Source: Methanocellales archaeon (GTDB lineage Archaea; Halobacteriota; JAWCLZ01). From it: DNA of 17,217 bases. Below the pieces are notes generated by a model. It made no database searches. It saw nothing but the letters and a program-made list of their open reading frames with translations, and was not told where the DNA came from. A program made the position numbers and the translations under genes. Shown here in pieces: positions 7,782 through 16,244 of the stretch; within the stretch, counting starts at the first letter, position 1, and every line of letters begins with the position of its first letter. Location: contig JAWCMA010000006.1 in NCBI GenBank assembly GCA_038850285.1, forward strand, positions 36,917 to 54,133, in the 5' to 3' direction.

Positions 7782-7817
7782 TTAGTGACTTCTTCAATGG
7801 AGGAGGAAAATAGATTT

Positions 7818-10202
7818 ATGGCACCAAAGATTGAGGCAAAAAAGGAAATGAAATACGAAGTTGAGGGAATGCAAAACGTGGAGATAAAAATAGGCAAAAT
7901 CGAGGAGGAGGAAAAACCCTGGGAGCCAATGGGACCAACGCCAAAGCCAAGCGTTCTTGATCTGCGGAGTTGGGATCACCTTTTGCTTAAGAGATACAAG
8001 CCATTTTATGCACCCCACCAAGATTTCTGCAATCTATGCACAATGGGACCATGCGATTTAACTGGAAATAAAGAAGGCGCATGCGGATTAGATTTACAAA
8101 CCCAGAAATCTAGGATAGTGCTTGCCGCAGTTGGCATAGGCACCGCTTGTCATACTGGTCACGCTAGGCATATGGTGAACTACCTCTGCGAAACCTTTGG
8201 CGAAGATACGCCTATAAGCTTAGGTGTAAACGTAAATGTTGAAGCCCCACTTACGAGGCTAATTACAGGTATAAAGCCGAGAACCATTGGTGATCTTAAA
8301 GAGGTACTGGAATACATTGAAGAGGAATATGCAATAGTAATGGCAGCTCTTCATACAGGCCAAGAGGGTAGCTACTTAGACTTTGAATCCAAGTCACTGC
8401 ACCTTGGAATGCTTGATTTACTTGCACTTGAAGTTGCAGATATAGCTCAAATTTCAGCATTGAACTTCCCCAAGGCAGATCCCAATGCGCCTTTAATAAC
8501 CTATGGATATGGTAATATAGATACCTCGAAACCGGTGATCTTAGTAATCGGCCACAACGTGATACCAAGCACAGGTATAATAGATTATCTAGAGGCAAAT
8601 AATTTAATGGATAAAGTGGAACTCGCAGGAATATGCTGCACTGCTCACGATAACGCTAGATATAACAAAAAAGTTAAATACGCTGGATCACTCGCGCAGC
8701 AGCTTAGATTAATTAGAAGTGCGATTCCTGATGTCATCGTAACAGATGAGCAATGCGTGCGCACAGATGTATTTAAAGAGGCAAGCAAATTGGGAATAAA
8801 AGTTATAGCTGCCTCAGAAAAAATCTGCTATGGATTACCTAATAGAACTAAGGATAAACCCGAGGATATAATAAGAGATCTAATGGCAGGAGCACCTGGG
8901 TATCTAATCACCGATCCCAAAGTAGTAGGCCCAGTTGCAGTGAATGTAGCGATTGAGAATGCAAAGGTCAGGAAAACAAAGAATCAATTGATGAGCGATG
9001 AAGAATTCAAGAAATGGGTAACAGAGTGCACAAACTGCGGTAGCTGTACATTGGTATGCACCCATGGTTTGAGAATTGGCCCAGCGAATAAAGCAGCTGA
9101 GAAAGGAGATAACTCCAAGTTAATTGAACTATTAACTACTTGCATCTCTTGCGGTAAATGTGAATGGGAATGCCCCAAGAACATTCCCATCGTAGATGTC
9201 ATGATAAAAGCAGGCATAAACGAGCTCAGGAATGAAAAGGGATTTGTGAGAGCAGGTAGAGGTGCTATTGAAGATTCAGAGATACGCAAAGTTGGCTCGC
9301 CAATTGTATTAGGCACAATTCCAGGTATAATTGCATTCGTAGGCTGCCCAAATTACCCAGATAGCGCAGAGGCAGTATATAAGATGGCTGAGGAATTCTT
9401 GAATAGAAAATATATCGTGGTAGTCTCAGGATGCCATGCCATAGATATTGGAAGATATAAGAATGAGGAGGGCAAAACGCTTTATGAGAGATTCCCAGGC
9501 ACCTTTGATGCAGGTGGACTAGCAAATGTAGGCAGCTGCGTTTCAAACTCTCACATCGCAGGAGCTGCAATTAAAGTACCTAATATTTTTGCGATGCGGC
9601 CAATAAGGGCTAATTACGAGGAAATCGCGGATTACATTTTAAATAGAATAGGTGCGGTAGGCGTTTCTTGGGGAGCAATGTCTCAAAAGGCAGCTTCAAT
9701 TGCAACTGGCTTCAATCGGCTTGGGGTGCCAGTAGTAGTTGGCCCGCAGGGAGCTAAGTATAGAAGAAGCTACTTGGGAAGAAAGGATATAGCCGAGGAT
9801 TGGTGGGTCTATGACATCAAGGATAGCTCGAAAGTCCCAATCGAACCCGGTCCCGAGCACTTGCTATACATTGCTGAAACTTGGCAAGAAGCAATTGTGA
9901 AGATCGCTAGATTATGCATGAGACCTAATGACACCGATCGAGGAAGATCAATAAAACTATCGAATTACCTAGACTTGAGTGAGAAATACTATGGCAAGCT
10001 ACCGGATGACTTCCATCTCTTCGTGCGCTGTCCAACAGATCTACCAGTTGCTAGGAGAAAAGAATTACTTAGAGTGCTTGAGGAGAAATATGGCTGGAAG
10101 ATCGACCACGAGAAGATGAAGATCCTCGAAGGACCAATTAGAAAATTCGACGCCAGATTCAATCCAACTAACCTTGAGCGCTTGCTCAAGAAGAAAGCAT
10201 AG
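7818..10202 (+). CDS. cdhA: ACDS complex alpha subunit (Ni-CO dehydrogenase)
   Basis: MGPTPKP, B-cluster Cys (C-x2-C-x4-C-x9-C), C-cluster ligands GHN, GICCT, DEQC, GCPN, SGC, GSCVSN, SQKA lysine, and two ferredoxin-type motifs (CTNCGSCTLVC, CISCGKCEWECP). Start set at ATG 7818 after SD GGAGGAGG. Confidence 0.97.
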   Translation: MAPKIEAKKEMKYEVEGMQNVEIKIGKIEEEEKPWEPMGPTPKPSVLDLRSWDHLLLKRYKPFYAPHQDFCNLCTMGPCDLTGNKEGACGLDLQTQKSRIVLAAVGIGTACHTGHARHMVNYLCETFGEDTPISLGVNVNVEAPLTRLITGIKPRTIGDLKEVLEYIEEEYAIVMAALHTGQEGSYLDFESKSLHLGMLDLLALEVADIAQISALNFPKADPNAPLITYGYGNIDTSKPVILVIGHNVIPSTGIIDYLEANNLMDKVELAGICCTAHDNARYNKKVKYAGSLAQQLRLIRSAIPDVIVTDEQCVRTDVFKEASKLGIKVIAASEKICYGLPNRTKDKPEDIIRDLMAGAPGYLITDPKVVGPVAVNVAIENAKVRKTKNQLMSDEEFKKWVTECTNCGSCTLVCTHGLRIGPANKAAEKGDNSKLIELLTTCISCGKCEWECPKNIPIVDVMIKAGINELRNEKGFVRAGRGAIEDSEIRKVGSPIVLGTIPGIIAFVGCPNYPDSAEAVYKMAEEFLNRKYIVVVSGCHAIDIGRYKNEEGKTLYERFPGTFDAGGLANVGSCVSNSHIAGAAIKVPNIFAMRPIRANYEEIADYILNRIGAVGVSWGAMSQKAASIATGFNRLGVPVVVGPQGAKYRRSYLGRKDIAEDWWVYDIKDSSKVPIEPGPEHLLYIAETWQEAIVKIARLCMRPNDTDRGRSIKLSNYLDLSEKYYGKLPDDFHLFVRCPTDLPVARRKELLRVLEEKYGWKIDHEKMKILEGPIRKFDARFNPTNLERLLKKKA

Positions 10203-10214
10203 GAGGAGAGGTAA

Positions 10215-10727
10215 ATGGCGAAAGCTTGGAATTTAGCGGATGTAGCGGGACCGAAGCAAGCTAGAGTAACTAAGCCTGAGATTATAGCAGCCCTTGTGAA
10301 GAAAGCCAAGAAACCACTACTAGTAGTGGGCGCAGAAATACTGCGAGATGGAGTAATAGATAGAGTGATTGAGATAGGTAAAAAGGGCATACCAATAGCA
10401 GCCACAGCCCATACCATAAAAGCATTTTTAGAAAAAGGCTATACCCCAGCTTCAAGCGACTTAGGAGTGCACGAGGTAACCAACTTATTAAAAGATCCTG
10501 AGTGGAAGGGCTTCGATGGAAAAGGCAACTACGACATGGTAATATTCCTAGGAATAAACTACTACTTAGCATCGAGAATGCTATCCACACTCAAACACTT
10601 CGCCCCCCATTTAAGAGCTTACTCCCTTGATCGCTACTACCACGTAAATGCAGAGATGAGCCTAGATAACATCTTCGAAGACCAAAAATTCCTAGAAGCC
10701 CTCGATTTATTCATAAGCAAACTATGA
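10215..10727 (+). CDS. cdhB: ACDS complex epsilon subunit
   Basis: AGPKQA, KKAKKPLLVVG, LKDPEWKGFDGKGNYD, LSTLKHFAP, LDRYYHVNA. SD GGAGAGAGGT upstream. Position after cdhA. Confidence 0.95.
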   Translation: MAKAWNLADVAGPKQARVTKPEIIAALVKKAKKPLLVVGAEILRDGVIDRVIEIGKKGIPIAATAHTIKAFLEKGYTPASSDLGVHEVTNLLKDPEWKGFDGKGNYDMVIFLGINYYLASRMLSTLKHFAPHLRAYSLDRYYHVNAEMSLDNIFEDQKFLEALDLFISKL

Positions 10728-10781: not shown

Positions 10782-12197
10782 ATGGCTGAGGAAAAAGAAG
10801 TATTCCCATTTGACATAAGCCCGATGTATGAAGGGGAGCGGATTCGAAAAGGCGAGATGTTCGTTGACTTAGCAGGACCGGAGTACAAGGGATTTGAACT
10901 AGTAGTATCGGCACCTATGGAGGAAGTTGAGGATGGCAAAGTAACCATCATTGGTCCAGATATTAAGGACATGAAAGAAGGCAGTGGTTACTCCTTTGCA
11001 ATGATCTATAAAGTGGCTGGAGAAATGGTAGAAAAGGACTTAGAAGGCATTATTGAAAGAAGAAACCATGACTTCCAGAACTATATACAGGGATTTATGC
11101 ATTTGAATTCAAGAGATGTAATTTGGTGCAGAATTAGTAAGGATGCCGTGAAAAAAGGCTTGAAATCCCTGGAGCAAATTGCCAAGGCAACAATGATGCT
11201 CTTTAAAAGTGAGATGCCCTTCATTCAAAAAATGGAGGCAACATATATAACTGATAAAGCTGAGATTGAGAAGCGAAGGCCAATGGCACAAGCAGCTTGG
11301 GACTGGAGAGATGCTAGAGCTAGAGGTTTAAATGAAGAGGATGTGGATACCTTCTATGGCTGCACCCTCTGTCAAAGCTTCGCACCAACTAATGTCTGCG
11401 TAGTCACCCCAAATCGCTATTCCCTCTGTGGAGCAATAGGTTGGTTCGATGGAAGAGCAGCTGCAAAGGTAGATCCAGAGGGCCCAAATGCACCAATTCC
11501 AAAGGGAGAGGTAATAGATCCAATCCTTGGGCAATATAGTGGAGTAAATGAAGCTGCAGTTAGATTAAGCGGTGGAGAATATAATAAGATAAATCTCCAT
11601 AGCTTCTTCGAGAGTCCGCATACTTCATGCGGCTGCTTCGAAGTCTGCGGTTTCTACATACCAGAGGTTGATGGAATAGGTTGGGTGGATAGGGATTATA
11701 CAGGTATAGCGGTGAATGGCTTGCCCTTCTCCACAATGGCAGGGCAAACAGGGGGAGGCAAGCAAATCATAGGCTTTCTAGGCGTAGGCATAGAATACAT
11801 GCGCTCCAAGAGATTCATCCAAGCAGATGGAGGTTGGTATAGAACTGTTTGGGTGACCAAGAGATTGAAGGAGAAAACCCAGGATTTCTGGCCACCTGAG
11901 ATGAAGGGGAAAATAGCTACCGATGAAGATGTAAAGAACTTAGAGGAACTTAAGGCATTTCTCAAGAAGGTAAACCACCCAGTGGTAACAGGGGTAATAA
12001 GACCAGTGGATGGCAAGAGAATAACCGAGGGCTGGCCATTTGAAGTAACCCCCGAGATAAAGCAAAAAGTAATTGCCTATATAGAGGAAACCGGGGGAGA
12101 AATAGATCTCGCGGTGGTGGAGAAAAAACTAGGCTTAACTGAAGCGCAATTCATGAAAGTAGTAGAAGTACTTCAAGCTGAGGGAATACTAGGGTGA
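10782..12197 (+). CDS. cdhC: ACDS complex beta subunit (acetyl-CoA synthase)
   Basis: FDISPMYEGERIRK, A-cluster ligands GCTLCQSFAPTNVC, SLCGAI and HTSCGCFE, plus GQTGGGKQ and QADGGW. Confidence 0.97.
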   Translation: MAEEKEVFPFDISPMYEGERIRKGEMFVDLAGPEYKGFELVVSAPMEEVEDGKVTIIGPDIKDMKEGSGYSFAMIYKVAGEMVEKDLEGIIERRNHDFQNYIQGFMHLNSRDVIWCRISKDAVKKGLKSLEQIAKATMMLFKSEMPFIQKMEATYITDKAEIEKRRPMAQAAWDWRDARARGLNEEDVDTFYGCTLCQSFAPTNVCVVTPNRYSLCGAIGWFDGRAAAKVDPEGPNAPIPKGEVIDPILGQYSGVNEAAVRLSGGEYNKINLHSFFESPHTSCGCFEVCGFYIPEVDGIGWVDRDYTGIAVNGLPFSTMAGQTGGGKQIIGFLGVGIEYMRSKRFIQADGGWYRTVWVTKRLKEKTQDFWPPEMKGKIATDEDVKNLEELKAFLKKVNHPVVTGVIRPVDGKRITEGWPFEVTPEIKQKVIAYIEETGGEIDLAVVEKKLGLTEAQFMKVVEVLQAEGILG

Positions 12198-12218: not shown

Positions 12219-12443
12219 ATGGCGGAGGAGAAAAAAGTATTAAAACTAACACTTAAGAAACCAGAAGCAGCACCAGCAGCACCAACCCCAGCGCCAGCAC
12301 CAACACCAGCAGTTAGACCAACTGTGGCAGCACCTGCACCAGCTGTAGCAGCGCCAGCGGCTGGAGGAGTGATAAAGTTAATTCTACAGAATGCTAAGAT
12401 ACACATCGACCAAGTAATAATCAAGAGGGAAGAGAAGAAGTGA
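12219..12443 (+). CDS. orf74: Ala/Pro-rich micro-protein resembling the detached C-terminal tail of CdhC
   Basis: Own SD GAGGTG (12208-12213) and ATG. Stop overlaps the cooC start (GTGA). Ends GGVIKLILQNAKIHIDQVIIKREEKK, like the terminal motif of typical archaeal CdhC. Confidence 0.85.
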   Translation: MAEEKKVLKLTLKKPEAAPAAPTPAPAPTPAVRPTVAAPAPAVAAPAAGGVIKLILQNAKIHIDQVIIKREEKK

Positions 12444-13195
12444 CTAGGATAATTGCCGTCACAGGTAAAGGTGGAACTGGGAAAACCGCGGTTTCCGCGC
12501 TATTGCTGAGATACTTGATTAAAAAAAATAATGCAAGAATCTTAGCAGTAGACGCGGACGCGGATTCCAATTTACCTGAAGCCCTTGGCGCTAATAATGG
12601 TAAAACAATCGGGGATGTGAAGGAAGTATTTTTAAGAGGGAGGCTAGATCTCCCGCCTGGAGTTGATAAAAGAGTTAGATTTGAGGGAATGGTCCACGAA
12701 GTCCTGAGGGAGAATGAGAAGTATGACTTAATAGTCATGGGCAGACCAGAGGGACCAAATTGCTATTGCTATACAAATGATATGCTGAGAGCAATATTAG
12801 ATAAAATCGTGAATAACTATAATTACGTGGTTATAGATACAGCTGCTGGACTTGAACATTTCAGCCGAAGGTTGATTCAACACATCGATATTCTCATAGT
12901 GGTAACCGATACCTCCAAGCACGGCTTGACCACAGCTCAGCGAATTAAAAAAATAGCCGAGGAAGTTAACATCAGGATTAATAAAATGTTTATCTTGGCT
13001 AATAAAGTGGATGAAGGCCAAGCAATAACTATAGCGCAATATGCAAAGCATTTGAGTCTGGAGGTAATAGGTGCTATTCCCTTTGATGAAGTGCTATTGA
13101 AATACGACCACCAAGGATTGCCTCTCTTGAATCTCCCCGATGATTCCATTGCGGCTAAAAAGGTTGAGGCAATAGCTAGAAAGATTGGGCTGTGA
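12440..13195 (+). CDS. cooC: CooC/AcsF-type nickel-insertion ATPase (MinD/ParA family)
   Basis: Deviant Walker A GKGGTGKT, VDADADSNL, MGRPEGPNCYC (CxC nickel site), DTAAGLEHFSR, ANKV. Located within the cdh operon. Confidence 0.93.
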   Translation: MTRIIAVTGKGGTGKTAVSALLLRYLIKKNNARILAVDADADSNLPEALGANNGKTIGDVKEVFLRGRLDLPPGVDKRVRFEGMVHEVLRENEKYDLIVMGRPEGPNCYCYTNDMLRAILDKIVNNYNYVVIDTAAGLEHFSRRLIQHIDILIVVTDTSKHGLTTAQRIKKIAEEVNIRINKMFILANKVDEGQAITIAQYAKHLSLEVIGAIPFDEVLLKYDHQGLPLLNLPDDSIAAKKVEAIARKIGL

Positions 13196-13199
13196 TCCT

Positions 13200-13415
13200 A
13201 TGACTAAAGTAACCGCTGAGGAAATTTTGAAAATCATTAGCGAACTGGAAATAGAGGAATTAAAAGGCATTGAAATGGAGGGAGACATAGAATTAGAACT
13301 CGAGTCCGAAGTTCTCATTCGGCAGATGGCTCCTCAAGTTCCTGAGACATTTGGAATGGAACTTTCAAGTGCTATGCAGCATTTATCAAATGCATTGAAA
13401 ATGATAGGCAAGTGA
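13200..13415 (+). CDS. orf71: micro-protein paralogous to the CdhD N-terminal region
   Basis: ATG 13200 lies 4 nt after the cooC stop. 24 of the first 36 residues are identical to the CdhD N-terminus (manual alignment). Confidence 0.85.
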   Translation: MTKVTAEEILKIISELEIEELKGIEMEGDIELELESEVLIRQMAPQVPETFGMELSSAMQHLSNALKMIGK

Positions 13416-13446
13416 GCTTGCCTTGAGCTTACCTTGAGGCTTGCAT
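13413..13446. repeat. Three imperfect 11-12 nt direct repeats
   Basis: TGAGCTTGCCT (13413), TGAGCTTACCT (13424), TGAGGCTTGCAT (13435). The first copy begins with the orf71 stop codon. Confidence 0.75.
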
Positions 13447-13479
13447 TAAATTTCAATAAAAAAGTTGTGAGGGAATTAA

Positions 13480-14829
13480 ATGGCAAAGATAAATGTAGCT
13501 GAGCTAATGAAAATCATGAGCGAGCTAGAGGTTGAAGAACTCAAAGGAGTGGATATAGAAGGAGATATTGAACTTGAACTTGAGAGCTCGGTGGTAACAC
13601 TTATGGCAGGGCTCTCGCCAGAGGCATTGCAAGCTCTTGGAAGCGAGCTAACGGAAGCTATGGCTCGGCTGCAAGCAGCTGCAAAAGCACTTGGCATACC
13701 AATTCCTCCACTCGCACCTCCAATTGCTCCACCAGTAGCTCCACCAGTAGCTGCACCCCCAGTAGCCCCCCCAATCGCACCCCCGAAACCGATTGAGCTG
13801 ATTAAAACCAAGTTCAGTGTTAAGCCTGAGAAGTATCCAATGCAAATTCAAGAAGTGGTATTAGGAGCAACTTCAAGCGATGGAGGCACCAGAAGTCATA
13901 CCATAAAACTTGGCGGGCAAAAGGCAATGCCCTATTGTATCTTCGACGATGCAATTCCCAATAGACCTCATGTAACGCTTGATGTATTTGATATGCCAAT
14001 GAGCCTTGCCAAGGCAGTTAGAGTTCACTACGAAGATGTAATGCAGAATCCTGCTGAATGGGCGAAGAAAGCTGTGGAGAAATTCAATGCAGACATGGTA
14101 ACTATACACCTCGTAAGCACTGATCCACTCATTAAAGACACCCCTGCTAAGGAAGCCTGCAAAGTAGTGGAAGAAGTACTGCAAGCAGTGAAAGTGCCAA
14201 TTGTAATAGGAGGCTCGGGCAATCCCAAGAAAGACCCAGAGGTACTTGAAAAAGCAGCTGAAGTTGCTGAGGGCGAGCGCTGCTTGCTTGCAAGTGCCAA
14301 TCTAAATATGGATTTCCCGAGAATCGCGGCTGCAGCTAAAAAATATGGGCACGTGATACTAGCTTGGACGCAGATGGATATAAATGCTCAAAAGGAGCTC
14401 AATCGAAAGCTTTTGAAAACATGCGGCATACCCCGCGAGGATATAATAATGGATCCCACGACCGCTGCGCTGGGATATGGACTGGATTATGCCTATACAA
14501 ACATGGAAAGAATGAGAATAGCTGGGTTAAAAGGCGATGCCGAGCTAGCATTTCCAATGTCATCAGGCACAACTAATGCTTGGGGCGCAAGAGAAGCTTG
14601 GATGACTTCCTCGCCTCTTGCCCAAGACTCAGACTGGGGACCGAGGGAATATAGAGGCCCAATTTGGGAGATAACCACGGGCATGACCCTTGCCCTAGCA
14701 GGTGTAGATCTATTTATGATGATGCATCCCGCAGCAGTGGCAGCGCTTAAAGAACTCACTCAATCTCTACTTGGGAAAATTGATGCAACTCAAGTTGATA
14801 TCAGCGACTGGGTGAGCAAGGAGGTTTAA
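13480..14829 (+). CDS. cdhD: ACDS complex delta subunit (small subunit of the corrinoid Fe-S protein)
   Basis: [83 protein letters not shown]. Acidic N-terminus and Pro-rich linker. Confidence 0.97.
13699..13786 (+). repeat. Coding repeat for the Pro-rich linker (APP[IV])n in CdhD
   Basis: Encodes [29 protein letters not shown] and includes an exact tandem GCTCCACCAGTA x2. Confidence 0.8.
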
Positions 14830-14831
14830 AG

Positions 14832-16244
14832 ATGAAGGTAAAAAGTCCGCTTGAGGTCTATCGCTATTTACCAGCCACAAACTGCACTAAATGCGGCCAG
14901 CCCACTTGCATGGCTTTCGCGTCTCAGATGATAGCTAGAGAGAGACCCCTTGAAGATTGCACTCCAATTCTCGAGGCAAAGTATAAAGCCAAATATGAAG
15001 AACTAAAGCGATTGCTAGCGCCGGAGATCAAGCAAATAACAATTGGCGTTGGAGAAACAGCGAAGAAGATCGGAGGGGAAGACGTACTCTATCGCCACGT
15101 CTTAACCTTCTTCAATCCACCGCCGCTTGCATACGATGTCTGGGATACAATGGATGAAAAAGCACTGGAGGAAAGAGTTAAGAAAATAATTTCCTTCCAG
15201 AAATTCTACGTGGGTGAATTCCTGAAGCCAGATATGATCGCTGTGAGATCCACTTCGAATAATCCAGAGAAATTCGCAGCTTGCGTTAAAAAAGTCATGG
15301 GCATGACAAACTTGCCTCTTATATTGATGTCCCTAAACCCAGCTGTGCTTGAAGCTGGACTTAAGCTAGCTGGTGACAAGCGTCCATTGGTCTACGCGGC
15401 TAATAAAGACAACTGGAGGAAAGTCGCGGAACTAGCCAAAAAATACCGCGTACCCGTAACAGTTTCAGCTCCCGGTGATTTAGATATGCTTGCTTCCCTC
15501 GCGAAAACCCTCTTAGGCTTGAATATCGAGGACATAGTGCTCGATCCAGGTACCTATTGCCATGGAAAGCAGTTGAAACAAACCTTTGAGAACTTCATAA
15601 AACTTAGAAGGGTAGGAATAGTTGAGGGACAGCGGGATATAGCATTTCCAATAATGTGCATCCCAATGACAGCTTGGCTTACTGAGAAAAACCCTCTTGA
15701 AGGAGCATATAGAGAAACAGAGATTGCAAATATATTCACCGTGAAATATGCAGATTTACATGTGCTGCATAGCCTAGAGCCATATTCAATAATTCCCATA
15801 TTATATCTCAGGAGAAATATCTACACAGATCCCAGAACACCTGTGCAGGTAACACCTGGTTTGAAAGAAACAGGTACGCCAACTAGAAAATCGCCTGTTT
15901 TCGTGACCACCAACTTTGCTTTAACCTTCTACACTGTTGAGAGCGATATTTCCTCGAATAAGATAGATAGCTATATAGTGGTCGTAGATACAGGCGGCTT
16001 AGGCGTGGAACCTTCAGTTGCAGGGGGGCAGTTGACAGCGAGTAAAATAAAAGAAGCAGTGGAATTCGCCAAAGTCAAGGAAAAAATAGATCACAACACC
16101 CTGGTGATCCCAGGTTTAGCCGCTCGATTAAAGGGCGATTTAGAGGATGCCACTGGAATGACAATATTAGTAGGCCCAACTGACTCAGGTAGAATACCAA
16201 GTTGGATGGAAACCCACTGGAAGAAAATAATGGGAGGAACCTAG
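14832..16244 (+). CDS. cdhE: ACDS complex gamma subunit (large subunit of the corrinoid Fe-S protein)
   Basis: LPATNCTKCGQPTCMAFA...C [4Fe-4S] motif, IGGEDVLYRH, IVLDPGT, NIYTDPR, TTNFALTFYTVESD, IPGLAARL, VGPTDS. Confidence 0.97.
   Translation: MKVKSPLEVYRYLPATNCTKCGQPTCMAFASQMIARERPLEDCTPILEAKYKAKYEELKRLLAPEIKQITIGVGETAKKIGGEDVLYRHVLTFFNPPPLAYDVWDTMDEKALEERVKKIISFQKFYVGEFLKPDMIAVRSTSNNPEKFAACVKKVMGMTNLPLILMSLNPAVLEAGLKLAGDKRPLVYAANKDNWRKVAELAKKYRVPVTVSAPGDLDMLASLAKTLLGLNIEDIVLDPGTYCHGKQLKQTFENFIKLRRVGIVEGQRDIAFPIMCIPMTAWLTEKNPLEGAYRETEIANIFTVKYADLHVLHSLEPYSIIPILYLRRNIYTDPRTPVQVTPGLKETGTPTRKSPVFVTTNFALTFYTVESDISSNKIDSYIVVVDTGGLGVEPSVAGGQLTASKIKEAVEFAKVKEKIDHNTLVIPGLAARLKGDLEDATGMTILVGPTDSGRIPSWMETHWKKIMGGT

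Follow-up and report, generated by a model that had tools for sequence, protein, structure and literature searches.

Acetyl-CoA decarbonylase/synthase (ACDS) is the enzyme at the core of both the archaeal Wood-Ljungdahl pathway and aceticlastic methanogenesis, and the architecture of this ~2 MDa complex has only lately been ascribed to a coiled-coil hub that the N-terminus of its subunit CdhD forms (Zimmer et al., bioRxiv 2026, PMC13370988). In the Methanosarcina acetivorans complex described there, the centre of the particle is an antiparallel coiled coil, hexa- to octameric, of CdhD residues 45-68, and a fusion of CdhD(43-88) to mEGFP oligomerises but loses this ability on Leu-to-Ala or Leu-to-Asp exchange; the disordered tails of CdhA and CdhC are proposed, without biochemical data, to bind the disordered N-terminal region of CdhD. 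In the same account bacterial AcsD, the small subunit of the corrinoid iron-sulfur protein (CoFeSP), generally lacks this N-terminal region. Here we analyse a stretch of 17,217 nucleotides from a Methanocellales archaeon (assembly GCA_038850285.1, contig JAWCMA010000006.1, positions 36,917 to 54,133 of the forward strand; "the window" throughout), which holds a complete archaeal cdh (ACDS) operon on the plus strand and, directly ahead of cdhD, a small open reading frame (ORF), orf71 (13200-13415, plus strand, 71 codons plus stop), that by its similarity to CdhD is a free-standing paralogue of the CdhD N-terminal module. A term search of the main text of the hub report (PMC13370988) gave no mention of stand-alone copies, paralogs, a small protein or cooC, and no description of free-standing copies of the CdhD N-module was found in a full-text literature search.

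The first-pass annotation of this DNA, made from the letters alone, had proposed that orf71 is a stand-alone duplicate of the CdhD N-terminal module, and direct comparison bears this out. In a single BLASTP comparison, orf71 aligns with residues 1-72 of the adjoining CdhD at 36/72 identities and 51/72 positives with one 2-residue gap (E 1e-19). Recounting from the sequences reproduces the finer figures as well: 24 of 36 residues are identical across orf71 residues 1-36 (13200-13307, plus strand), which comprise a short helix and an acidic motif and are the most conserved part of the module; the second helix, GMELSSAMQHLSNALKMIG, agrees with its CdhD counterpart at 9/19 positions; and in an identical 10-residue block six of the ten codons differ synonymously, including TCC versus AGC. 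The orf71 C-terminus (...MIGK) is, as had been noted, the point at which CdhD passes into its Pro-rich linker; the span originally marked, 13200-13700, takes in orf71, the spacer that follows it and the CdhD N-module. orf71 starts 4 nt past the stop codon of cooC (13193-13195) and ends 64 nt ahead of the cdhD start (13480). Searching the window's own genome with orf71 returns just orf71 itself and cdhD, with no third copy. No Pfam family matches orf71 at E up to 0.01, and it aligns to positions 4-69 of the 442-position NCBIfam profile for the ACDS delta subunit (NF003375) with E 4e-6 and 26 bits, against a cut-off of 488. Because the PF03599 TIM-barrel body is absent, orf71 is not a CdhD or CoFeSP small subunit (PF03599, TIGR00381).

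We recognise a hub module by significant similarity to the archaeal CdhD N-terminus, by the acidic motif I-E-G-D-[ILV]-E-[IL]-[ED] and by an amphipathic helix whose heptad hydrophobic core aligns with the published hub helix. orf71 has the similarity, reads IEGDIELE at the motif and carries such a helix, the heptad assignment being our reading of the sequence. A further mark of the module, assembly with itself or a partner into a hexa- to octameric coiled coil, is addressed by the complex prediction below. In alignments of 19, 27 and 18 rows, I26, G28 and E31 of the motif are invariant or nearly so. The amphipathic helix, residues 47-70 (13338-13409, plus strand), aligns with CdhD 49-72, the coiled-coil hub helix, so that L55, A58, M59, L62, A65 and I69 of orf71 pair with L57, A60, M61, L64, A67 and L71 of CdhD. 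An AlphaFold2 (AF2) monomer model of orf71 places helices at residues 6-15 and 47-69, at a mean predicted local distance difference test score (pLDDT) of 62.

How old is the copy, and has it been kept? Between orf71 and codons 1-72 of cdhD, synonymous sites are saturated and the nonsynonymous divergence (dN) is 0.43; because the synonymous divergence (dS) between the paralogues is saturated, the copy is old. Orthologues of exactly 71 codons, without indels and at 63-73% nucleotide identity, are present in the window's genome (G000), in a genome of the same family and another genus (G003, labelled uncultured Methanocellales) and on a 1094-nt metagenome contig (L042), and the last two share the position between cooC and cdhD. 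Over the three pairs the dN/dS of the small ORF (NG86) is 0.09, 0.24 and 0.18, with dS at or near saturation, which is about equal to the 0.09-0.25 of the CdhD N-module in the same pairs. Under a neutral, substitution-only simulation at 25-50% divergence, the frame stays open in about 5-10% of trials. In this clade's small ORFs and CdhDs the helix core positions are hydrophobic in six of six sequences, and eight surface positions of the helix are class-specific: where the small ORFs read ELSSA[MI]Q[HN]LSN.LK, CdhD has EL..AMARL[QN]A.A. A tree inferred by maximum likelihood from 33 rows and 85 of 101 columns unites the clade's small ORFs in one group (support 100/97) that is sister to the clade's CdhD N-modules, and the duplication is therefore older than the split of the two genera. 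The earlier description of orf71 as "an old, selected duplicate" and not a decaying fragment thus stands for the window's lineage, and the dN/dS among orthologues, a check that had been named at the time, is not near 1. We conclude from these comparisons of sequence that orf71 is a real gene under selection in this lineage, derived from a duplicated cdhD 5' end, and that no clear case of a retained copy is older than that of the window's lineage.

Closer relatives are also on record. The protein collection contains a fourth 71-aa product, P0004, which is 92% identical to orf71 and differs from it by six amino-acid changes, all conservative; it probably lies on X5, a 4929-nt sediment-metagenome contig that equals the longest contig of P0004 in length, is of ~93% identity, spans the orf71 region and shows, among the differences listed, 4 non-synonymous and 2 synonymous changes relative to orf71. 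No orf71 match was found in two genomes of the window's own genus, G001 and G002. These genomes (92% and 100% complete) have no CdhD or CdhE above the Pfam cut-off, unlike G000 and G003, and the absence of orf71 is for that reason uninformative; either the genus varies in its possession of ACDS, or binning differs, for contig C6 or for G001/G002.

We now consider whether such copies occur elsewhere. A profile of the module was searched against 401 genomes of the phylum, of which 188 matched, and every genome with at least two matches was followed up. A short frame of less than 130 aa is present in 11 of the 188 matched genomes (G000, G003, G019, G029, G039, G032, G163, G332, G276, G296 and G226). 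Degenerate forms also appear: G226 has half a copy (58 aa), the match in G241 contains an internal TGA, and L101 holds an ORF of 35 aa. A scan of one genome per species covered 80 loci, 11 with a short ORF: six are ANME-2a-type (anaerobic methanotrophic archaea; labels Ca. Methanocomedens, Methanosarcinales and one bin labelled Anaerolineales), two are from Ca. Methanolliviera metagenome-assembled genomes (MAGs), and one each is from an Archaeoglobales MAG, from G003 and from a Methanotrichaceae MAG, the last with a 35-aa ORF. Profile search of 5.8 billion proteins returned, among 1659 candidates, 64 of 37-175 aa at E up to 1e-3, a few of which are CdhD fragments at contig ends (for example P0005); these 64 include Methanophagaceae-labelled records of 100 aa and Methanosarcina-labelled ones of 75-94 aa. 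The copies measure 68 aa in ANME-2a-type loci, 75 in Ca. Methanolliviera, 82 in G019, 71 in G032 and 80-81 in Archaeoglobales. In five groups (the window's clade, Methanolliviera, G019, G032 and ANME-2a) the ORF ends at the helix end or at most 4 residues from it. The cooC-cdhD intervals of other archaea, which the first-pass annotation had singled out as a place to look, do hold a small ORF in G003, L042, Methanolliviera, G019 and G032, and the order cooC-small-cdhD is common to Methanolliviera, G019, G032 and G003. Head-less copies are found in at least eight lineage groups, including Ca. Methanolliviera, ANME-2a-type, ANME-1-type, Archaeoglobales and Methanosarcina.

In a tree covering six of these groups, well-supported branches require the "small" label to have arisen separately at least six times, and a single origin is allowed by none of 200 bootstrap trees. 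Gene conversion could imitate part of this multiple-origin signal. In the ANME-1-type genomes G276 and G296 (loci L027 and L029), the small ORF and the CdhD of one genome share a variant, SSGG in G276 and SSDG in G296, and the two small ORFs share other derived residues, a pattern that hints at gene conversion between the tandem paralogues of these genomes.

The ANME-2a-type loci show how such copies can be made. At L049, L057, L058, L060 and L075 a leader of about 20 nt, AATAAGGTGGAATCAnAATG, is nearly identical ahead of the 68-aa ORF and ahead of cdhD, and the small ORF's final codons and stop (ATGCGATGA) equal the letters that precede the leader upstream of the same ORF; this repetition of leader and ATGCGATGA identifies a simple tandem duplication of the cdhD 5' end. 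The frame at L048, of 127 aa, has the look of one more partial repeat. In G019 the cdhD 5' end (L016, 1713-2065) contains an N/X gap lying exactly within the segment that is duplicated in the upstream 82-aa ORF, probably because the assembly broke or collapsed at this near-identical repeat. The Methanosarcina-type ORFs of G163 (L038, 968-1195) and G332 (L039, minus strand, G332:C1:312693-312908), of 75-94 aa, adjoin no cdh gene, and in G332 cdhD is ~690 kb from the head-less ORF. They carry a conserved signature of their own, KDVQILSLEG...GDTELDL, and eight 90%-identity clusters of this type are seen in the protein collection. The overall picture is of a mutationally easy duplication that is lost or drifting in some lineages and selectively kept in others.

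What would a head-less hub module do? We give a probability of about 0.5 to the reading that orf71 co-assembles with the CdhD hub as a head-less subunit. The orf71 product, if made, would enter or dock onto the CdhD coiled-coil hub; its presence there would alter the number of CoFeSP heads per hub, or the number of docking sites for the CdhA and CdhC tails, and the change in heads or docking sites would in turn tune the size or stoichiometry of ACDS. A role in ACDS oligomerisation, as scaffold, spacer, chaperone or competitive regulator, had been suggested in the first-pass annotation; the general direction fits the hub described in PMC13370988 and the conserved helix core, and the role itself we infer. 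Modelling orf71 together with the CdhD N-terminus had been put forward as a check. With three CdhD N-modules and one orf71 the complex prediction scored 0.48 (runs 0.52, 0.48 and 0.44) against 0.01 for the best control, for which the tool's own verdict is "weak support". Agreement between runs extends to at least 50% of contacts, and the partner pLDDT is at least 48 (about 49). The mark used is reached by 116 of 157 solved complexes and by 2 of 215 mismatched pairs, and among those at or below 0.60 are 18 of the 157 and both passing mismatches. A broader proposal is that head-less hub subunits are a repeatedly invented form of ACDS regulation, in which co-assembly would set the number of units of CoFeSP, acetyl-CoA synthase (ACS) and carbon monoxide dehydrogenase (CODH) per particle or would switch the complex between synthesis and cleavage regimes; this we hold to be less likely than not.

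Several observations weigh against the reading of orf71 as a hub subunit. The in-silico binding pass is weak and comes at low fold confidence, and because orf71 is a paralogue of a self-associating module the pass may reflect likeness alone. Occurrence is patchy within genera (G019 has the ORF and G009 lacks it; G032 has it and G138 and G381 lack it; 2 of 13 g21 genomes have it), and the small ORF is therefore dispensable for ACDS as such. The closest pair (P0004/X5) has no sign of strong constraint, its two synonymous differences being among those listed, and constraint on the CdhD N-module is itself loose (dN/dS 0.2-0.7), so that like values in the copy show retention, not a specific role. 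One metatranscriptome (X6; a single run of 73 million letters, as contigs) has 100%-identical contigs on 12277-12425, within the neighbouring orf74, and on 13613-13768, within cdhD, and none on orf71, which gives no verdict on orf71 expression either way. The G163-G332 pair of small ORFs has a dN/dS of 0.45 (p 0.046). For the ANME-2a-type small ORF the value is about 0.6-0.9 (ten pairs, range 0.21-2.95), compared with 0.12-0.40 for the CdhD N-module and 0.01-0.11 for the CdhD body, and the paralogue dS is 0.09-0.18; the ANME-2a copies are young, weakly constrained and nearly neutral. Neither this look of the ANME-2a copies nor the recurrence of the module was known to the first-pass annotation. 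Together with the tandem-duplication footprint of these loci, the recurrent and patchy origins and the degenerate remnants in G226, G241 and L101, these ANME-2a values favour an account in which orf71 is a neutral by-product, the cdhD 5' end being prone to tandem duplication and the copies lingering without a role. Against it, the copy in the window's clade is old, has an indel-free frame of 71 codons in three divergent orthologues with dN/dS of 0.09-0.24 and bears its own signature, and selection is seen in other lineages as well (dN/dS 0.28 for G029-G039, Fisher p 0.01; 0.15 for G276-G296, p 2e-4); for orf71 we judge neutrality distinctly improbable.

Two further accounts grant the gene a function and place it outside the hub. 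orf71 might be a homo-oligomer of its own or an adaptor, its acidic motif docking the CdhC tail homologue orf74 and/or the CdhA N-terminal tail, and so serve as an extra or alternative platform or as a decoy. Such a platform would suit the finding that conservation within the module is highest in the acidic motif, with I26, G28 and E31; helix 2 has come to bear class-specific residues on its surface, a divergence that could make mixing with CdhD less favourable; the CdhC tail, too, is encoded by a small ORF of its own in this lineage; and PMC13370988 proposes that the CdhA and CdhC tails bind the disordered region of CdhD. The two elements do not, however, travel together, since G032 has a head-less copy where the CdhC tail is fused and G009 has a split tail without a copy, and the helix core positions are kept as in CdhD, so we regard the platform as unlikely. 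CooC is known to insert Ni into the clusters of CODH/ACS and is not known to do so for CdhD, and this counts against the idea that orf71 is a CooC-tied assembly chaperone or maturation helper, one that caps the CdhD N-terminus transiently or hands over nascent CdhD during cofactor insertion. The start of the small ORF 4 nt past the cooC stop in the window and in L042, and 8 nt past it in G003, suggests translational coupling and speaks for such a helper, as does the recurrent gene order in Methanolliviera, G019, G032 and G003. The ANME-1-type copies (G276, G296), on the other hand, have no upstream cooC, the Methanosarcina-type copies are unlinked to cdh genes, and the place after cooC follows from the origin of the copy by duplication of the cdhD 5' end. 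This is the least probable of the explanations we consider, and co-assembly with the CdhD hub is the one we carry forward.

The remainder of the operon, all on the plus strand, is as follows. The genes cdhA (7785-10202), cdhB (10215-10727) and cdhC (10782-12197) are identified by Pfam (PF03063 and PF02552, PF03598 with PF19436 across the three). Next comes orf74 (12219-12443, 74 codons, Ala/Pro-rich), a free-standing homologue of the CdhC C-terminal tail, which matches positions 424-462 of 464 in the ACDS beta profile (NF003379, E 1.6e-4) and in which the basic motif GGVIKLILQNAKIHIDQVIIK comes after an Ala/Pro-rich stretch. G003, G039, G019 and G009 likewise encode the CdhC tail in an ORF of its own, and in G032 the tail is continuous with CdhC; with orf74 a free-standing CdhC tail, both proposed hub-binding elements are therefore separate small proteins in this lineage. 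The cooC-type P-loop NTPase (12440-13195, 251 aa; PF01656, PF13614, PF10609) precedes orf71. A fusion or read-through of cooC into orf71 across the cooC stop was considered and ruled out, as the frames differ (12440 versus 13200). An origin of the ...IGK* end of orf71 from the ...IGL* 3' end of cooC, on the pattern of the ANME-2a junction, was also weighed; by eye, this end is identical to that of cooC at 12/18 nt and to cdhD at 9/18, the stretch being too short and too old for a choice.

The spacer between orf71 and cdhD, defined by position (13416-13479, 64 nt), gives no signal of RNA structure (minimum free energy -18.5 kcal/mol, z -0.42; 62 of 200 shuffles fold as well), and in a ~93%-identical strain it has three indels among the differences listed (12 out, 1 in, 3 out). 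Between 12100 and 13600 a scan with a bacterial-type consensus, uninformative for an archaeon, found 3 promoter-like sites against 2.5 expected, and the sole terminator-like hairpin of the same scan is on the minus strand. cdhD itself (13480-14829, 449 aa) has PF03599 on residues 125-375 (E 4.5e-83) and scores 683.8 bits with NF003375; its N-module, delimited by the comparison with orf71, is residues 1-72 (13480-13695), and the Pro-rich linker, about residues 73-104 (13696-13791), precedes the TIM-barrel body. The ~93%-identical strain is without 12 nt at two places in this linker (13726 and 13768), which suggests that linker length varies in four-residue units of an (A/I)PP(V/I) repeat. The gene cdhE (14832-16244, 470 aa; PF03599, PF04060) follows.

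A conserved in-operon copy of the hub module, re-invented in several methanogen, methanotroph and alkane-degrader lineages, gives a concrete way into the question of what sets the size of the hub and the stoichiometry of the subunits. Annotation pipelines overlook these ORFs or label them delta subunit, and the head-less copies carry in the databases no name, "hypothetical protein" or a delta-subunit name. If the copies co-assemble, published equimolar models of ACDS would have to gain a sixth component in these organisms. The unlinked copy in Methanosarcina-labelled records makes the reading of these copies as ACDS regulators testable genetically in a model methanogen.

We close by placing orf71 among known systems. 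MicroProteins, or small interfering peptides, act by co-assembly and are paralogues of a larger protein, truncated to its oligomerisation domain. orf71 is likewise a truncated paralogue with the oligomerisation module of a larger protein and without its functional domain, a likeness known here from sequence, and it differs in that its target would be a metabolic megacomplex rather than a transcription factor. Bacterial AcsD is homologous to the CdhD body (CdhD matches NF040759), whereas orf71 corresponds to the archaea-specific part alone. The head-less ORFs of other archaea have the same architecture as orf71 but differ in origin, age and constraint, and those of Methanosarcina type lie away from cdhD. 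With the hub region of CdhD, as in M. acetivorans, orf71 shares homology along its whole length (50% identity to its own CdhD), the same acidic motif (IEGD-IE-L-E) and an amphipathic helix aligned with the hub helix; unlike CdhD, it is a separate 71-aa polypeptide that has neither the Pro-rich linker nor the TIM barrel, and the surface residues of its helix 2 are its own. In its working, orf71 would thus be most like the CdhD N-terminal hub region itself.

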